A stretch of DNA of 64,000 nucleotides, from assembly GCA_038064815.1 (NCBI GenBank), contig JBBTSF010000064.1:2308-66307 (forward strand), read 5' to 3'. This DNA comes from Patescibacteria group bacterium. GTDB lineage: Bacteria; Patescibacteriota; Patescibacteriia; UBA9934; GWF2-40-263. Below are positions 2,947 to 58,726 of this stretch, piece after piece; the stretch's first letter is position 1; each line of letters starts with the position of its first letter. The translations under genes were made by a program, and so were the position numbers. The notes beneath the pieces were generated by a model. The model was not told the origin of the DNA. It made no database searches and saw only the letters and a list, made by a program, of their open reading frames with translations.

Positions 2947-3075
2947 ATGATGACCCAGAGAGGAGAAGGTTCTGTGACGACGAAAAAGAAGTGGATCATC
3001 GGTGTGGCTGTGGCATTCATTCTGTATGAGTCGTGGCTCATATGGCTGGCAATGACCGCTCCACCATGCCGATGA
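2947..3075 (+). CDS. candidate 42 aa hydrophobic peptide, below the ORF-track cutoff
   Basis: ATGATGACCCAGAGAGGAGAAGG... encodes MMTQRGEGSVTTKKKWIIGVAVAFILYESWLIWLAMTAPPCR. It starts 13 nt after the third hairpin of repeat copy 2. Hairpins at 3079-3104 and 3210-3243 follow. Confidence 0.3.
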   Translation: MMTQRGEGSVTTKKKWIIGVAVAFILYESWLIWLAMTAPPCR

Positions 3076-3276
3076 TCTAGGGGGTTTCTACGTTCGCCCC
3101 CAGTCCTTAAGTCACCAGGATGGTGATGGACGAACCGAGAAATCGGAAAAGAATGTTCCTTCACTGTGGAGGTCAACAACTTGTCGAGAACAAACGCGTT
3201 CCCGACAACTGGCCCTGCATACACGACGTTGCAGGGCCGTTCACCTGAGCGCTCGATCTACTCGAACCTTCAGGAA

Positions 3277-3312
3277 ACAAAACAACCGCCTCATCGAAGG
3301 CGGTTGTTTTGT
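3277..3312 (-). terminator. intrinsic terminator hairpin, bidirectional
   Basis: AACAACCGCC tcatcgaa GGCGGTTGTT flanked by A and T runs, directly after the stop of the DUF559 gene. Confidence 0.55.
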
Positions 3313-3665
3313 TATAGGCAGTTTACACGGATGGTTTCTAGAACACCTTGGATGTTTTCCGTGACTTCGGTGTTGGTGAAACGGAGGGTTTTTATGTTGG
3401 CTTGGTTTAGGAATTCGGTACGAGCTTGGTCGTAAATTTTTCCTTCCGGTGTTTCGTGAGAGTCGCCGTCGATCTCGATGCAAAGTTTTAGACTGGGGCA
3501 GTAGAAATCTAGGATGTAGGGGCCGACGCCTTGTTGACGTCTGAACTTATGTTCCAATTGATTGTTTCTGAGATGTCGCCAAAGGGTTTGTTCCGGTTTG
3601 GTGGCGTTGGAACGGAGTTCTCTGCGGCGGTCTGTTTGAAGGGGTCGGTTGAAAAGATCTCCCAT
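3312..3665 (-). CDS. DUF559 / Vsr-like very-short-patch-repair endonuclease domain protein
   Basis: The sequence contains LRFTNTEV. and IEIDGDSHETPEGKIYDQARTEFLNQ., the conserved core of DUF559 endonuclease-domain proteins. Confidence 0.75.
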   Translation of the reverse strand: MGDLFNRPLQTDRRRELRSNATKPEQTLWRHLRNNQLEHKFRRQQGVGPYILDFYCPSLKLCIEIDGDSHETPEGKIYDQARTEFLNQANIKTLRFTNTEVTENIQGVLETIRVNCL

Positions 3666-3691: not shown

Positions 3692-3729
3692 GCCCCCCTC
3701 CCGACCTCCCCCCTAGCAGGGGGAGGAGG
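3692..3729. repeat. GC-rich palindromic element, intergenic copy; a second related hairpin at 3751-3776
   Basis: GCCCCCCTCCCGACCTCCCCCCTAGCAGGGGGAGGAGG is an exact 38 nt reverse-complement match to 41521-41558. It contains the hairpin CCTCCCCC-ctagca-GGGGGAGG. The downstream CCCCCTCC-tgcca-GGGAGGGGG is a related hairpin. Confidence 0.85.
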
Positions 3730-3797
3730 CCGCATTCCGGAACGTGTAACCCCCCTCCTGCCAGGGAGGGGGTCTGGGGGTGGGCCCGACGAGGGCG

Positions 3798-6050
3798 CTA
3801 TCGTCTCGCCGTCTCCCCACTCACCACATCCTCCAAATGCACACTGAGCAAACTCGACACTCCATCATCTCCCATCGTCACTCCGTACAAGACATCCGCC
3901 TTTTCCATCGTCGCGCGATTGTGTGTAATCACGATGAACTGACTTTTTTGGGAGAGTTCGTCGAGGATCGATGCGAAGCGGATCGTGTTGGCTTCGTCGA
4001 GGGCTGCGTCGACTTCGTCGAGGACGACGAATGGGGAAGGGTTCACGTCCATGATCGCGGAGAGAAGCGCGATCGAGGTGAGGGCGCGTTCGCCTCCGGA
4101 GAGGAGGTTGAGGGACTTCATGCGCTTGCCTGGGGGAGTCGCTTGAATGTCTACACCAACGATCGGGTCTTCATGCTTTTTCATTTTTTCCTGAATCTCA
4201 TCGGTCTTTTCTCGCTCTGCGGTTCCGGTGTCTGCAAAGACGCGATCGGGAGTCACTTCTTCTGCTTCGATTTCTTCGGAGGTGAGTTTCACCAAGTTGC
4301 ACGAGCCGCCACCAAACAGAATTTTGAAATAGTGCTGAAATTTTTTATTGATCTCACCGAACACTTTGCTGGATTGTTTTTCGATTTGGTCATCTAGCTC
4401 CTTCACGATTTTTTCGGTAGACGCGATGGCTTGCTGTAAGTCCGTGACTTGCGTTTCCAAAAATTCAAACCGTGTTTTTGTTTCTTGGTATTCTTTAATG
4501 ATCTCCGGATCGATTCCACCGATGAGTTCGAGTTTGTAGCGGATGCGTTGGATTTCTGGATGAAGATCATCGGCGTTGCGTGCGATCGCGACCCGTGTGA
4601 CACGCACGGACGGTCCAGCTTCTTTCATGAATTCATCCATCTCGCGTTTCAAATTTTCACTGCGTTCCTCCAGACGTGCAAGCGTAATTTCGTGTTGATT
4701 GCGATTTTGTTCGAGGACATGAAGTTCCTGTTGTTTGCTGCGAAACGCGCGTTGAGAATCGATCAGTTCCGTGCGAACTTTTTGTTCCTTCGCTGCGTAT
4801 GAGTCGATCTGTTTTTCAATCTGCGATAGCTGCGAAGCCATTTCTTTTTCTTCTACCTGAAGCGTTTTCAATTTCGCAATCAGCTCTGGATCTGGCTTGA
4901 TGTCCTCTGGGTTTGGTCGTTGCAATCGCGAAACCAGCGTATTGGAATGCCCAAACACTTCGTCGATGGCAGTCATGACCTCTTCGAGCTTTTCGAACTT
5001 CTTGAGCTTCTCGAGCTTCAATTTAATCTCTTCTACCCCTTCAATAATCTTCGAAAGCGGAAGTGGCGCCCAGTTCGACTGCGCCTTTACCTTCGAAAGT
5101 TCAATCGATTTTTCTGTTTCAAACTGCGCGCGGCGTGAGAGTTCACATTTCTTCTGCTGCTCACGATATTCTTTTTGCAAAGCCGCAAGCCCTTCATCTT
5201 TAATGTCCTCACCTTCCATCTCTTTTGTTTTCTGCTCGAGGATTTTGAGTTCGGCCTGAAGATCACTCATGGTTTTGTCAGACGCATGGAATCGTTTTTT
5301 GGCTTCCTCAGTTTCGTCCACGAGCGTCCACCACAAACTTCCATAATACTTTTCTTCGAGTCCGCGAAGTTCTTGCTCAACCGCCGCGCGTTCTTCCAAA
5401 CGATTTGCTTGGCGCTTGAGGGATCGAAGGCGCGGCTCAATTTCTTTCATGAGCATTTCCAGATCGTTGAGATTTTCCAGTGTCCGTTTCAACTTCAACA
5501 TCGCCTCATGTCGTTTGATTTGAAACTGTTTTACGCCGGTGGCGTCATCAAAAAACGCTTTACGTTCCTCAGGAGTGGAAACCAAAATATGATCGATCAT
5601 TCCTTGACCGATGACACTATAGGATCGTTGACCGACGTTTGCTTGGGCGAGAAGAAGTTGAATGTCTGAAAGTCGGAGTGCTCCTTCGTTTAAAATATAT
5701 TCAGATGTCCCGTCTCGAAACAATCGACGACTAATCGTCACATGGCCGTATTCAATCGGCATCGCTCCATCTTCGTTGTTGAAGCTGAGTGAGACCTCCG
5801 CAAATCCTCCGCGTGCGCGGCCTTCCGATCCAGAAAAAATCACATCTTCGGATTGCTTTCCGCGTAAGAGTTTCAAACTTTGTTCGCCAAGCACCCAACG
5901 AATGGCGTCGGCTAAGTTTGATTTTCCAGAACCGTTTGGCCCAACCACAGCGGTGACCGGACAGCGCTTTTCGCCTGGTGGCAGAAAGCTCAGAACTGTT
6001 TTTTTTGCGAAGGTTTTAAAGCCCTGAATTTCCAATTTTTCGAGATACAT
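3798..6050 (-). CDS. smc: chromosome segregation protein SMC, unusually short at 750 aa with no recognizable hinge
   Basis: Canonical SMC head at the N-terminus: MYLEKLEIQGFKTFAKKTVLSF..VVGPNGSGKSNLADAIRWVLGEQS. Canonical C-terminus: LSGGERALTSIALLSAIMDVNPSPFVVLDEVDAALDEAN...QFIVITHNRATME. The start was moved to the ATG at 6050; the track ORF extends 94 codons upstream. Confidence 0.85.
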   Translation of the reverse strand: MYLEKLEIQGFKTFAKKTVLSFLPPGEKRCPVTAVVGPNGSGKSNLADAIRWVLGEQSLKLLRGKQSEDVIFSGSEGRARGGFAEVSLSFNNEDGAMPIEYGHVTISRRLFRDGTSEYILNEGALRLSDIQLLLAQANVGQRSYSVIGQGMIDHILVSTPEERKAFFDDATGVKQFQIKRHEAMLKLKRTLENLNDLEMLMKEIEPRLRSLKRQANRLEERAAVEQELRGLEEKYYGSLWWTLVDETEEAKKRFHASDKTMSDLQAELKILEQKTKEMEGEDIKDEGLAALQKEYREQQKKCELSRRAQFETEKSIELSKVKAQSNWAPLPLSKIIEGVEEIKLKLEKLKKFEKLEEVMTAIDEVFGHSNTLVSRLQRPNPEDIKPDPELIAKLKTLQVEEKEMASQLSQIEKQIDSYAAKEQKVRTELIDSQRAFRSKQQELHVLEQNRNQHEITLARLEERSENLKREMDEFMKEAGPSVRVTRVAIARNADDLHPEIQRIRYKLELIGGIDPEIIKEYQETKTRFEFLETQVTDLQQAIASTEKIVKELDDQIEKQSSKVFGEINKKFQHYFKILFGGGSCNLVKLTSEEIEAEEVTPDRVFADTGTAEREKTDEIQEKMKKHEDPIVGVDIQATPPGKRMKSLNLLSGGERALTSIALLSAIMDVNPSPFVVLDEVDAALDEANTIRFASILDELSQKSQFIVITHNRATMEKADVLYGVTMGDDGVSSLLSVHLEDVVSGETARR

Positions 6051-41093: not shown

Positions 41094-41825
41094 TCAAAGA
41101 CGCGCAAGGAGGCTTTCCGCTGAAACAAGCAAATTTTTCCAATCTTCGGTTTTAAATTTCTCCAGGGAGACAGACTCGGAAATCGTGAATGGGCCGATGG
41201 AAGTGCGACGCAATTCCTGTACATATCCTCCCGTTCCCAGCGCCTGCCCAAGGTCGCGCGCGATTGCACGGATGTAGGTGCCTGTAGAACAGTGGATGAT
41301 GAGTGGGAGGAGGGTTTGTGAAGAGCCGGCTTCAATGGCGTGGATAGGTCCTATTTTAATGGAGTGGATGGTTACGGTTCGCGGCTTCGCCTCCAGCGGT
41401 TTTCCCTCACGCGCCGCCTCATACATTTTCTTTCCACCAATCTTGATCGCCGAATAAGCCGGTGGAATCTGTGAAATCTCGCCAGTGAATTGCTTAAGCG
41501 CATCCGCGATTGCGTCATGTCCTCCTCCCCCTGCTAGGGGGGAGGTCGGGAGGGGGGCACGTGGCGTAATCGTCCCCATCCGATCATCCGTATCCGAACT
41601 CGCTCCAAGCACAAACACCGCCTCATACGTCTTATCGAGTCCTACTAACTTAGGAAACTCTCGTGTCGCTTCACGTCCAACCCCAATAATCAAAAGCCCG
41701 CTCGCAAACGGATCAAGTGTTCCCGCATGACCCACGCGTTTTTCTCCCGTGATACGCCGAATTTTATCGACGATATCGTGAGAAGTGGGGCCGATTGGCT
41801 TGTCGATCAGGAGGAAGCCGGACAT
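41094..41825 (-). CDS. truB: tRNA pseudouridine(55) synthase TruB, carrying an in-frame copy of the GC-rich palindromic element
   Basis: Canonical GHAGTLDPFASGLL catalytic Asp motif and QIPPAYSAIKIGGKKMYE. The extra Pro/Gly segment TPRAPLPTSPLAGGGG is encoded by the 38 nt repeat. Confidence 0.9.
   Translation of the reverse strand: MSGFLLIDKPIGPTSHDIVDKIRRITGEKRVGHAGTLDPFASGLLIIGVGREATREFPKLVGLDKTYEAVFVLGASSDTDDRMGTITPRAPLPTSPLAGGGGHDAIADALKQFTGEISQIPPAYSAIKIGGKKMYEAAREGKPLEAKPRTVTIHSIKIGPIHAIEAGSSQTLLPLIIHCSTGTYIRAIARDLGQALGTGGYVQELRRTSIGPFTISESVSLEKFKTEDWKNLLVSAESLLARL
41521..41558. repeat. GC-rich palindromic element, intragenic copy inside truB, inverted relative to 3692-3729
   Basis: Exact 38 nt reverse-complement identity, in frame in the truB coding sequence. 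Local GC is far above the surrounding gene. Confidence 0.85.
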
Positions 41826-56777: not shown

Positions 56778-58633
56778 TACAGCTCGTCCGTGAAGACGAC
56801 CGGGCCCTCTTCGGCATCGTCCGCGCCGTGGATGCGGAAGCTCTTGCTTCGCAACGTCATCGTCGCGCCAGCGAGCTCGACCAACGAACCGGCCTTCCCG
56901 TGGAACAGGAAGAACGGGGTCAGGCGAGTGCGCGCGGCACGATCGATGGCGACCCGGCCCATCGCGTCGCGGTAGGCAACCGTGTAGCGGGCCGAGGCGA
57001 TGATGTGCTGAGCGACCACGGGGTGCGGCAGAGCCGCGACATCCTTGAGATGCGTGACCCACGCCGTCTGATTCTGGGCCTGGGGCCCGAGCACGATGCT
57101 GCGAGATCCCCAGGACTGGTTCTTGCCGTCCCATGCGGCGAACTTGGTGAGGTGAAGGTCGCGCTGGTTGGCGACCTCGGACTCCCAGGTTGAGCCGTTG
57201 ACGACCTGCGTCTGCGCGACGCAGTTGTGCAGGGTCGTGAGGGTTGCCTGGCCACCGAGGCTGACGATGCGGTCCATGACGGTACGATCCCAGAGGGCGG
57301 CCATCAGGCTCTTGCTCTCGAGGAAATACCACAGGGGGTTCATGACGTACGCGCCCTGTTCGTGCCAACGCTTCAGCAGTTCGAGTGCGTTGGTGTTGAC
57401 CAGGTTGTCCAGGTATCCGAAGCGGTAGATCACCGTCTCCGGCCCGAGGTCGAGGGGCATCCCCTCGTCGCTTCCGTGGACGAACTCGAGGAACCCGAGG
57501 CTCCGGAGTCGACCGAGGAAGTCGCGGTTCCACGCGGCGCGCGCGGTTGCGGAGATGTCCTTGTGGGGCTCCCACGCCGTCTGCACGCGCTCGTGGATCT
57601 CCGCGAGCGGCCTGTCGAACCAGAGTTCGGCATCCACGCCCGCGTCGCGCAGCGCCTTGATGAAGCAGGCCTGCTCCCACGTGTACTCGGCCCACTCGTT
57701 GGTGGCGAGCACAATGTACCGTCGCCCCTTGAGAAGCCGCAGGTAGCCGTTGAGCATGCTCAGCGGCAGGCCGTAGCCGAGCTCCATGGCGTGCGCCATG
57801 CCCTGACCGCCGGGGCAGCTCTCGAACTCCGTGATGACCGGGCGCAGCTTCTTGGTGACGGGATCGAGGACCACCACGATGTCGGGGCGCATCACGCCCA
57901 CCGTGTCTCCGTGGAGAAGGGCGGGGATGCGATCCGGCTTGCGGTAGCTGAGCAGATTGCGCGGTGTCTCGTAGTCGCGGTGGGTCTCGTAAACGGCCTG
58001 GAAGGCCACGCCGAGAGCCTGACCAAGCTCACCGAGCTCCGTCACGAAGTATGTCGGCAGAGCGAACGGATCGATCATCTGGCGCCACGTGACGCCGGTG
58101 CCACCCTTGTAGCCGACGCCAGTCGCCGTCATGATCCGCCGCGTCTCTTCGACGCTGGGCTCGACGGGCTTGCCGATGCGGTCAGCGAACTTGCTGACGC
58201 CCGCGGCCTGGTCGTATCCGTCGACGAGCTCGGGTTCGACCAGGAGAAGGTCTGCGAGGTTCGGGGTGACGCCACCGATCTTGGGGATGTTCTCGATGAC
58301 AACCCACTTGCGCGGCTGACCCTTGCGAACTCCTTCCTCCGCCCGCCACTTGAACCCGATGATGGCGTACCGCTCCTCGAGCGCATTCAGAATTGGACCG
58401 TTCTTCGGCCACTCCGTGCTCTGCTCGGGGACGGTCACACCGTCCAGCTCGACCTTGCCGGCGAGCACTTCGTCTCGCCACTTCTTGGTCGTTCCATGTG
58501 GGGTGCCATTGGGCCCTGGCTTGAAGCCGTGCTTCACCCGCACTGCGAGAATCGCATCGGGCTTCGCCTTGGCTGTTGTTCCGCCCTCCCAGCTTCCGCT
58601 GGTGGTCGGACGATCTTCGGTGAGCAATGTCAT
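56777..58633 (-). CDS. hypothetical 618 aa protein with an ATP-grasp-like motif, GC-rich, translationally coupled to the methyltransferase
   Basis: ATG at 58633 with GGAGGG nine nt upstream. PVITEFESCPGGQGMAHAMELGYGL resembles the ATP-grasp E-x-N-x-x-P-G segment of D-Ala-D-Ala ligase, here E-x-E-x-x-P-G. Non-repetitive protein. About 65% GC. Confidence 0.5.
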   Translation of the reverse strand: MTLLTEDRPTTSGSWEGGTTAKAKPDAILAVRVKHGFKPGPNGTPHGTTKKWRDEVLAGKVELDGVTVPEQSTEWPKNGPILNALEERYAIIGFKWRAEEGVRKGQPRKWVVIENIPKIGGVTPNLADLLLVEPELVDGYDQAAGVSKFADRIGKPVEPSVEETRRIMTATGVGYKGGTGVTWRQMIDPFALPTYFVTELGELGQALGVAFQAVYETHRDYETPRNLLSYRKPDRIPALLHGDTVGVMRPDIVVVLDPVTKKLRPVITEFESCPGGQGMAHAMELGYGLPLSMLNGYLRLLKGRRYIVLATNEWAEYTWEQACFIKALRDAGVDAELWFDRPLAEIHERVQTAWEPHKDISATARAAWNRDFLGRLRSLGFLEFVHGSDEGMPLDLGPETVIYRFGYLDNLVNTNALELLKRWHEQGAYVMNPLWYFLESKSLMAALWDRTVMDRIVSLGGQATLTTLHNCVAQTQVVNGSTWESEVANQRDLHLTKFAAWDGKNQSWGSRSIVLGPQAQNQTAWVTHLKDVAALPHPVVAQHIIASARYTVAYRDAMGRVAIDRAARTRLTPFFLFHGKAGSLVELAGATMTLRSKSFRIHGADDAEEGPVVFTDEL

Positions 58634-58726
58634 CTTCGCTATCCCTCCATCACTGGTTGCGTTCTGGTCATTCCTCCAACAAGCATTTCTGCTCGCAGAG
58701 GGAAAACAGGACACAACCCTTAAACA

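Follow-up and report, generated by a model that had tools for sequence, protein, structure and literature searches.

Rickettsia palindromic elements (RPEs) are repeats of about 100-150 nt, each adding a peptide of tens of residues. Shorter repeats make up the BoxC/PIT/TM group, on which earlier work reportedly includes that of Bergler in 1992 and of Hoyne and Maher in 2000 and 2002. These are intrastrand triplex motifs with the consensus 5'-CCCTCNCCC-N3-6-GGGNGAGGG-N3-GGGNGAGGG; two subtypes, set by the 3-nt second loop, are found as inverted pairs, 23 copies are present in Escherichia coli K-12, and the motifs are known from over 260 proteobacterial genomes as well as, in abundance, from cyanobacteria (Holder et al. 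2015, PMC4666352). Single strands adopt a stable purine-motif triplex in vitro, and none was seen in vivo; the motifs are tied to locally variable loci, are "always intergenic" in E. coli, have never been found with a transposase or integrase nearby, and their mechanism and origin "remain unanswered" (Holder et al. 2015, PMC4666352). The present study concerns 64,000 nt of DNA (the window) from a Patescibacteria group bacterium (GenBank assembly GCA_038064815.1, contig JBBTSF010000064.1, positions 2,308 to 66,307, forward strand), in which the 38-mer GCCCCCCTCCCGACCTCCCCCCTAGCAGGGGGAGGAGG is present both beside a DUF559 nuclease gene and within truB. Sequence comparisons firmly support its being one unit of the BoxC/PIT-type family of intrastrand triplex motifs. 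What is new here is the host phylum, Patescibacteria, the sequence of the stem, and residence in coding sequence by overwriting.

The first-pass annotation of the window, made from its letters alone, had reported the 38-mer in two exact copies, one intergenic and one in truB. Both sites were recovered, at 3692-3729 (+) and 41521-41558 (-), with no match in 100 dinucleotide-preserving shuffles, and the genes named around them (smc, DUF559 and truB) were correct, the Pfam matches of DUF559 and truB being given below. The identity between the two sites breaks off sharply at each end. Within the window, whose GC content is 49.6%, no third copy with up to three mismatches was found, and clusters of repeated C or G runs of at least five bases occur only at these two sites, single runs being present elsewhere. 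The triplex-type units of the window number three (E1, E2 and the truB copy), and none was found in the further 10.9 kb of the source contig (2.7 kb + 8.2 kb). One short-read Logan contig ends within the element, as an artefact would have it. A chance match or an assembly artefact is nevertheless a negligible prospect: the shuffles lead one to expect none, the element-containing TruB protein matches, at 100% identity, a protein of a Patescibacteria metagenome-assembled genome (MAG) that has been recorded on three contigs of three different sources (NCBI, MGnify and ENA), the pair on the DUF559 side was found again in an independent ENA assembly, and two further MAGs have the unit in truB. The repeat is not an assembly artefact. 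The Logan contig in question (L143), from a short-read assembly of the same organism, breaks off, in its last 35 nt, inside the distal unit, which is a typical repeat-induced contig end.

The features at the centre of the analysis are the following.

3692 to 3729, + strand: E1, the 38-mer unit; a G, the C-box CCCCCCTCC at 3693-3701, the spacer CGA, then the C-arm CCTCCCCC(C) at 3705-3713, loop TAGC(A), G-arm GGGGGAGG at 3719-3726, then AGG
3730 to 3748, no strand: central spacer of the inverted pair; palindrome TTCCGGAA, with a core, ACACGTTCCGGAATGCG, that the sister genome L004 keeps in its orthologous pair
3749 to 3785, + strand: E2, a diverged inverted unit; hairpin CCCCCTCC-TGCCAG-GGAGGGGG at 3751-3772, spacer TCT, G-box GGGGGTGGG at 3776-3784
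3692 to 3785, no strand: the whole inverted pair (C-box-hairpin ... hairpin-G-box), at the 5' border of the DUF559 cassette and downstream of the smc stop
41521 to 41558, - strand: solo unit in truB, identical to E1; on the + strand, hairpin at 41524-41545, TCG, and G-box at 41549-41557
3312 to 3665, - strand: DUF559 gene of 117 aa (YcjD-like, Vsr-fold PD-(D/E)XK nuclease; Pfam PF04480, E=2.7e-31; NCBIfam PRK09767)
41094 to 41825, - strand: truB, the host gene of the solo unit (TruB_N, E=2.1e-42)

On its G-rich strand, a unit consists of a C-arm, a loop of 4-6 nt, a G-arm, a 3-nt spacer and a G-box; the opposite strand reads as a C-box followed by the hairpin. The unit proximal to DUF559 is, on the G-rich strand, CCTCCCCCT-GCTA-GGGGGGAGG-TCG-GGAGGGGGG. 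Seen on the sense (-) strand of DUF559, E1 is thus a hairpin, TCG and the G-box GGAGGGGGG, which ends 26 nt ahead of the DUF559 ATG. The perfect 8-bp stems previously claimed are there, CCTCCCCC/GGGGGAGG in E1 (3705-3712/3719-3726) and CCCCCTCC/GGAGGGGG in E2 (3751-3758/3765-3772), and all three window units can be described either as an 8-bp perfect stem with a 6-nt loop or as a 9-bp stem that has one mismatch and closes a 4-nt loop. E2 had been taken for a second related hairpin; its stem is perfect, but it is no separate element, being a diverged inverted copy of the 38-mer unit with its own trailing GGGGGTGGG. The arms of the pair (3692-3740 versus 3737-3785) are 71% complementary.

In the window units the box mirrors the adjacent arm (perfectly so in E1) instead of repeating it directly, and the purine-motif triplex rule is followed at 8/8 positions, with a 3-nt second loop, in all three (E2 has T over A). 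The same relation prevails among 146 related units, with 99 mirror against 12 direct cases (p=3.5e-14), and the second loop is 3 nt long in 107 of the 146. A riboswitch-like toggle, with the G-box as alternative Watson-Crick partner of the C-arm, was discarded since the box is a mirror repeat. With a folding tool that considers Watson-Crick pairs only, a single structure of some 94 nt, hairpin or cruciform, is predicted for the intergenic pair (-73.7 and -79.1 kcal/mol; z -2.2 and -3.1). Searched with Rfam gathering thresholds, the window gave 3 tRNAs only; an E-value search of the pair and six related loci gave no family, just sub-threshold matches resembling miRNA precursors, which arise because the pair forms a long hairpin. 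About 210 nt downstream of DUF559, at 3075-3105, there is a G-first hairpin, GGGGGTTTCTACGTTCGCCCCC, which is not a triplex motif.

The likeness to BoxC/PIT/TM extends over the whole anatomy: the window units fit the succession of C-stem, 3-6 nt loop, G-stem, 3-nt loop and mirror G-stem, they share the richness in G and C and the length of 34-37 nt of repeats that are dispersed in many copies, over a broad phylogenetic range and at locally variable loci, and E1 (TCG) and E2 (TCT) form at 3692-3785 an inverted pair of two subtypes. One K-12 copy, in addition, adjoins ycjD. The differences are that the window stems are CCTCCCCC and CCCCCTCC whereas the E. coli consensus stem is CCCTCNCCC, that the host is a Patescibacterium, that the boxes of the window pair point outward while those of K-12 pairs point inward, that copies lie in frame within essential genes whereas the E. 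coli motifs are reported as intergenic, and that the bracketing of DUF559 described below is absent from that literature. By these traits, the window units would be classed as a G/C-rich class II triplex motif and not as TM_ECO in the strict sense. Units nearly identical to them occur in proteobacterial contigs, outside the host phylum. A pair in a Permianibacter MAG matches the window unit at 33/35 positions (hand alignment); it was the sole locus returned by a degenerate 34-mer contig scan, which missed the source genome and so is no genome-wide census. About 40 of 50 prophage-like contigs matched by a 21-nt pattern have the full anatomy. The first-pass suggestion of a mobile mini-element of this lineage therefore stands as to a dispersed, selfish-looking palindromic mini-repeat, and falls as to lineage-specific novelty, given the BoxC/PIT/TM anatomy and the proteobacterial units.

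The gene that E1 precedes codes for a bare Vsr-fold domain of the fold clade VSR/DUF559/DUF2726 (E=7.6e-19 against PDB 3hrl), in which D53, E64, D66 and H70 are invariant among 40 homologs. No transposase is present within the cassette; from the sequence, the DUF559 gene is the one that may be the partner of the repeats. The association was surveyed in 80 metagenomic loci carrying the closest relatives of the window DUF559 protein (45-55% identity), with a background computed per flank and per strand. In a strict scan, a unit with its box facing the gene was found upstream, within 110 nt, in 26/72 cases, an inverted one downstream, within 100 nt, in 32/74, and both in 15/66, against a background of 0.5% overall and 2.2% in distant non-ORF DNA (ORF, open reading frame). 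Relaxing the scan raised these numbers to 45/72 upstream (within 130 nt) and 44/74 downstream (within 110 nt), with at least one unit in 50/66 loci (76%) and both in 29/66, for a background of about 2%. The nearest upstream unit faces the gene 27 times against 3, and the nearest downstream unit 32 times against 5 (p ~1e-5 each). Left and right units of one locus are 380-503 nt apart and resemble each other more than units of different loci do (0.79 within loci versus 0.67 between loci, p=4e-8). That units bracket one DUF559 subfamily as inverted terminal units is firmly supported. The first-pass annotation had named the neighbouring DUF559 gene without connecting it to the repeat, although this association tells more than any other feature.

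Individual loci illustrate the arrangement. The sister genome L004 has a conserved pair upstream of DUF559 and a unit encoding the last 10 residues of the ORF; in an Uhrbacteria genome (L005) the cassette exactly fills the rpiB-rpe gap, and the same layout is seen on a plasmid of an isolate of the alphaproteobacterium Qipengyuania citrea and on two prophage-like contigs (L036, L015). The N-terminal "extensions" of several database DUF559 homologs are translated units, e.g. SPSKIRGGQGAL, PLLDKEGVGGG and PPLEQGRLGGV. In E. coli K-12, TM_ECO #9 (1,351,239-1,351,204) lies about 170 nt downstream of ycjD, the stop codon of which is overlapped by a degenerate unit, and ycjD with an adjacent motif is found in 3375/5426 complete E. 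coli genomes. In the K-12 ycjD-fabI region (L145, 5040-5830), the 3' end of ycjD is duplicated about the degenerate motif ('ETVLENILQELNRR' / 'ETVLENIRQGLNR'). O157:H7, which has no ycjD, was considered as an empty site and set aside, as different genes are present between sap and fabI. Replication in viral contigs was weaker, a correctly oriented unit being present at 16/51 stand-alone DUF559 ORFs against a background of 0.8%; the unit-bearing ORFs are the closer relatives of the window protein. We found no report of a link between DUF559 and these repeats in the literature, the coverage of which was incomplete, so that this is absence of evidence only.

The second copy is that of truB. As proposed, it is read in frame, from A90 to G102 (A90-PLPTSPLAGGG-G102; APLPTSPLAGGGG). 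The relatives of the TruB protein are Candidatus Uhrbacteria, and the window comes from an Uhrbacteria-like MAG. In an AlphaFold2 model of TruB (mean predicted local distance difference test score, pLDDT, 93), residues 89-100 are modelled as coil between a strand (86-88) and a helix (101-111), and over block 91-100 the pLDDT falls to 70, its minimum in the protein; that the unit is tolerated in frame as a coil loop is firmly supported. The stretch between S-x-TDD and QIPP was compared in 119 TruB orthologs: its modal length is 40 aa (44 proteins), against 46 in the window and 53 in the two closest relatives; the lengthening that had been suspected is thus real, and the loop is missing from most orthologs.

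In both of these relatives (P0002 and P0003) the unit has an identical position, its loop being 21 nt longer and flanked by CCCTGGCAGG direct repeats. By truB identities the window groups with P0002 and P0003 is the outgroup; the long unit is therefore ancestral and the 38-nt form of the window derived. The unit is more conserved than its surroundings, with 37/38 identities between window and P0003 (P ~1e-3) and 59/59 between P0002 and P0003 (P ~1e-5), the remainder of truB being 78-82% identical. By these alignments, the truB copy would have been inherited from a common ancestor of at least three genomes. The DUF559-proximal unit of the window carries the same derived 38-nt state, its orthologous unit in L004 being clearly different; sequence has therefore moved, in a recent exchange, between loci 38 kb apart after the split of the window and P0002 lineages. 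Taken as sequence patterns, these relations firmly support concerted evolution of the unit family.

Variant units are found at the same loop in other Uhrbacteria TruBs and in both orientations: hairpin then G-box in P0025 and P0019 ("PLPLAKGELEGV"), C-box then hairpin in P0048 ("HNHPFPLLQKEGE"). An apparent decay series runs from LPLAKGELEGV to LPLSKEELEGV to LPPSEKELEKI. In seven further TruBs (P0037, P0050, P0095, P0057, P0065, P0080 and P0091) the same loop encodes other small GC-rich repeat families, with peptides such as 'LLRSARNDE'/'SSASGLLAMT' and 'APGFSLG...PRLKPGAT', so that the TruB loop seems, on sequence grounds, to be a general sink for palindromic repeats. The loop of the unit itself reads CTAGG in the window (41534-41538 and 3715-3719) and CCAGG in the truB units of L002/L003. 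CTAGG is the deamination product of a Dcm-type site, the lesion on which canonical Vsr acts; its presence near a Vsr-fold gene is probably coincidental, and CCWGG/Dcm-Vsr was rejected as a general explanation because the loop sequence is not conserved across the unit family.

A unit amounts to 11-13 codons, and the net changes in length at coding copies are small. In truB of the window, the net gain is +6 aa and about 7 native codons are overwritten; it is +5 aa for the C-box-first variants of truB and +1 to +2 aa for the hairpin-first ones. The net change is 0 in smc of the sister genome L004 (9020-9060, LPLAKGEVWRGSG), where the unit replaces a native segment of the SMC linker, and again 0 in leuS (L136, 2464-2496), where VPLLAKEGSGEV stands in place of NVPGQESGKQKV with no gap relative to two orthologs. 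Similar peptides (LPPTRGGIKGGG, LPPARGGTKGGG) are found at the same place in the SMC orthologs P0276, P0282 and P0274, and an in-frame unit recurs, at a single position, in the roughly 600-aa terminase-like ORF of four prophage-like contigs. The frame is hence kept at the further coding copies, in smc, leuS and the terminase-like ORF. The first-pass argument that 38 is not a multiple of three is moot, as the identity simply stops at 38 nt and the frame is set by the amount of native sequence replaced. Aligned with their orthologs, the truB, smc and leuS copies replace native codons and are no clean insertions. In relatives, the replaced native truB loop is P-L-P-x-x-P-L-like, and therefore resembles the C-box and C-arm. 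Either selection for near-length-neutral events in essential genes or short templated patch copying would account for the replacement. Among SMC homologs, P0313 (1220 aa) has Pfam PF14528 and PF14890, which we take to be intein/LAGLIDADG-type domains, inside SMC.

Behaviour of this kind had been compared with that of RPEs. The resemblance lies in selfish-looking palindromic repeats that essential genes accommodate in frame and that become, on translation, segments of the protein surface, and to that extent the comparison is apt; RPE membership and plain insertion are not borne out. The window unit is 38 nt, about one third of the RPE length, it comes from an unrelated lineage and has another anatomy, with a mirror-repeat third block in a unit of 34-38 nt, and it overwrites about 7 codons (net 0 to +6 aa at the different coding copies) where an RPE adds a large peptide. 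With REP/BIME-RAYT/REPIN systems, the units have in common that they are short hairpin repeats, come in two subtypes, form inverted doublets, flank a single small nuclease-type gene in inverted orientation and greatly outnumber it; they differ in the third mirror block, in the copies inside coding sequence and in the neighbouring enzyme, a DUF559 Vsr-fold PD-(D/E)XK nuclease instead of an HUH/Y1 transposase (IS200/IS605-like). True membership of, or homology with, either the RPEs or the REP/RAYT repeats is thus very improbable. Miniature transposable elements with inverted repeats (MITEs) offer the parallel of terminal inverted repeats around a coding version, together with short ORF-less versions; the cassette differs by lacking a transposase and by having as ends structured three-block motifs that are also found singly. 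The EDxHD/Vsr-like homing endonucleases, such as I-Bth0305I, have a Vsr fold and pseudopalindromic targets (Taylor et al. 2011, PMC3239194). They belong to the same nuclease fold clade and might, by analogy, share a selfish lifestyle through break-induced copying; the window protein differs in being a bare 117-aa catalytic domain without NUMOD/HTH module, and its ORF is free-standing between repeat units, not in an intron or intein.

With moderate confidence, we favour as the overall explanation that the truB copy is an orphan unit, that the DUF559 cassette is the autonomous form and that copying is based on repair. In the closest relatives of the window gene, over many lineages, the DUF559 ORF lies between two inverted units with boxes facing it, as a compact cassette of about 450 bp. 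Breaks or nicks would occur at or near structure-prone units, most plausibly by the DUF559 nuclease, and units would be copied between loci through recombinational or templated repair. Solo units, which together with ORF-less pairs far outnumber the cassettes, would be orphan derivatives of the cassette. In truB, an orphan unit would have overwritten native Pro/Leu-rich loop codons that were partly similar to the C-box, to be translated as a flexible surface loop tolerated by TruB. The causal step, in which the nuclease brings about the copying by nicking or cutting at structure-prone motifs with subsequent repair from another unit, is rated from the sequence data somewhere between doubtful and an even chance. 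More tentative still is the general form of the proposal, possible rather than probable in our view, in which a YcjD-like DUF559 protein is the partner of BoxC/PIT repeats, the cassette of about 450 bp is a minimal autonomous selfish element ranging from Patescibacteria to Proteobacteria, and its nicking or cutting at the motifs drives a short-patch, templated copying of the 34-38-nt units, with length-neutral overwriting of loop-coding parts of essential genes among the outcomes.

Several facts weigh against the favoured explanation. A 117-aa nuclease alone cannot transpose DNA, and we know of no biochemical activity for the DUF559 family. In viral contigs, 35 of 51 stand-alone DUF559 genes have no flanking unit, and the link is therefore limited to one DUF559 subfamily; conversely, 48/50 element-bearing viral loci have no DUF559. 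In K-12, 17/18 sites in the published table are not near a DUF559 gene, and about 38% of complete E. coli genomes have no ycjD and still show TM-like matches. In a sample of 30 E. coli rows, further TM-like places averaged 3.2 with ycjD and 1.6 without, a weak difference that is confounded by phylogroup and megablast sensitivity. No precise pair of empty and filled sites was found among the loci compared, and from linkage alone a driver of the repeats is indistinguishable from a parasite of them. Finally, neither a triplex in vivo nor a promoter, terminator or mobility function was seen for the motifs (Holder et al. 2015, PMC4666352).

The parasite version, the main rival, is that DUF559 is a free-standing gene of the homing-endonuclease type, which invades the centre of pre-existing pairs while the repeats spread otherwise: ORF-less pairs (hairpin-G-box ... 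C-box-hairpin) would be cleaved in the middle by the enzyme, repair would then copy its gene into the gap, and the truB copy would be unrelated. ORF-less pairs with boxes inward, as in the cassettes, and spacers of 16-33 nt do exist in K-12 and in the proteobacterial loci L018, L030, L040, L043, L044 and L045, and the DUF559 ORF takes exactly that central position; the targets of Vsr-fold homing endonucleases are pseudopalindromes with the insertion site at their centre, and units vastly outnumber DUF559 genes. We nevertheless consider this scenario rather unlikely, since it leaves unexplained both the multiplication of the units and the identity of the truB unit with the DUF559-proximal one, and since the spacers of empty pairs had no similarity to the ORF flanks in the few cases inspected. 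A different view would make the units immobile, host-selected structural or regulatory DNA or RNA elements (replication or recombination pause sites, mRNA stabilisers, or a control of DUF559 from its 5' untranslated region), with coding copies that are incidental or come from local quasi-palindrome correction. It would fit the freezing of the truB unit nucleotides while the gene diverges, the location of the G-box 0-40 nt ahead of the DUF559 start, where it could serve or mask a ribosome-binding site, and the reported tie between the motifs and variability of the genome nearby (Holder et al. 2015, PMC4666352). That view is improbable in the face of identical 38-mers at unrelated loci, near-identical units in different phyla, presence or absence that varies among orthologs and both orientations at one truB site; in addition, the inverted arrangement about the ORF points to a DNA-level and not an mRNA-level logic, no Rfam family was matched, and published tests for activity as promoter or terminator were negative (Holder et al. 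2015, PMC4666352).

The neighbourhood of the cassette bears on its borders. Two further features are needed here.

3798 to 6050, - strand: smc, upstream neighbour of the DUF559 pair; true start at 6050, element-free here
3278 to 3311, - strand: terminator-like hairpin AAAACAACCGCC-TTCGATGA-GGCGGTTGTTTTG, directly past the DUF559 stop

The cassette follows smc in the window and in L004 and is absent from two more distant Uhrbacteria, L140 and L141, where palindromes of an unrelated kind take up the interval as far as a terminator-like hairpin that is shared. The hairpin at 3278-3311 is common to L004 and to L140, which has no cassette, and therefore marks the 3' limit of the inserted segment. 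At the cassette position of L140 (6255-6470), the unrelated palindromic repeats are TACCCCGCCGCAAAGCGGACGGGGTA and ...CTCGGTCGGAATGACAGAC, ahead of the shared hairpin.

Two other observations concern DNA remote from the units. Between 56000 and 58000 the GC content of the window is 63-66% against about 47% around, and a 498-aa ORF at 57227-58723 (+) has no Pfam match on record; this segment may be acquired DNA. About 1.5-3.5 kb past the right end of the window, as seen in L144 (15074-17110), only a 227-aa EF-G fragment (EFG_IV, EFG_C) follows rpsL-rpsG, and the place where the 5' part of the EF-G gene is expected is taken by a 192-aa ORF of the opposite strand; the EF-G gene may be interrupted or mis-called.

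Catalogues of BoxC/PIT/TM repeats go back some 30 years; the repeats are present in hundreds of genomes and have been connected with local instability of the genome. Their strong, orientation-specific bracketing of one DUF559 subfamily names a candidate enzyme for their origin or spread, and the existence of an E. coli homolog, ycjD, makes this long-standing question testable at the bench. The coding copies also show that, in the small genomes of Patescibacteria, short loop-encoding stretches of essential genes (truB, smc, leuS) can be rewritten by such repeats, which are thereby a source of variation in protein loops, of mis-annotated "low-complexity" peptides and of assembly breaks. That the units replace residues rather than add them hints at short-patch templated repair, which, if true, would be mechanistically new for bacterial repeats.

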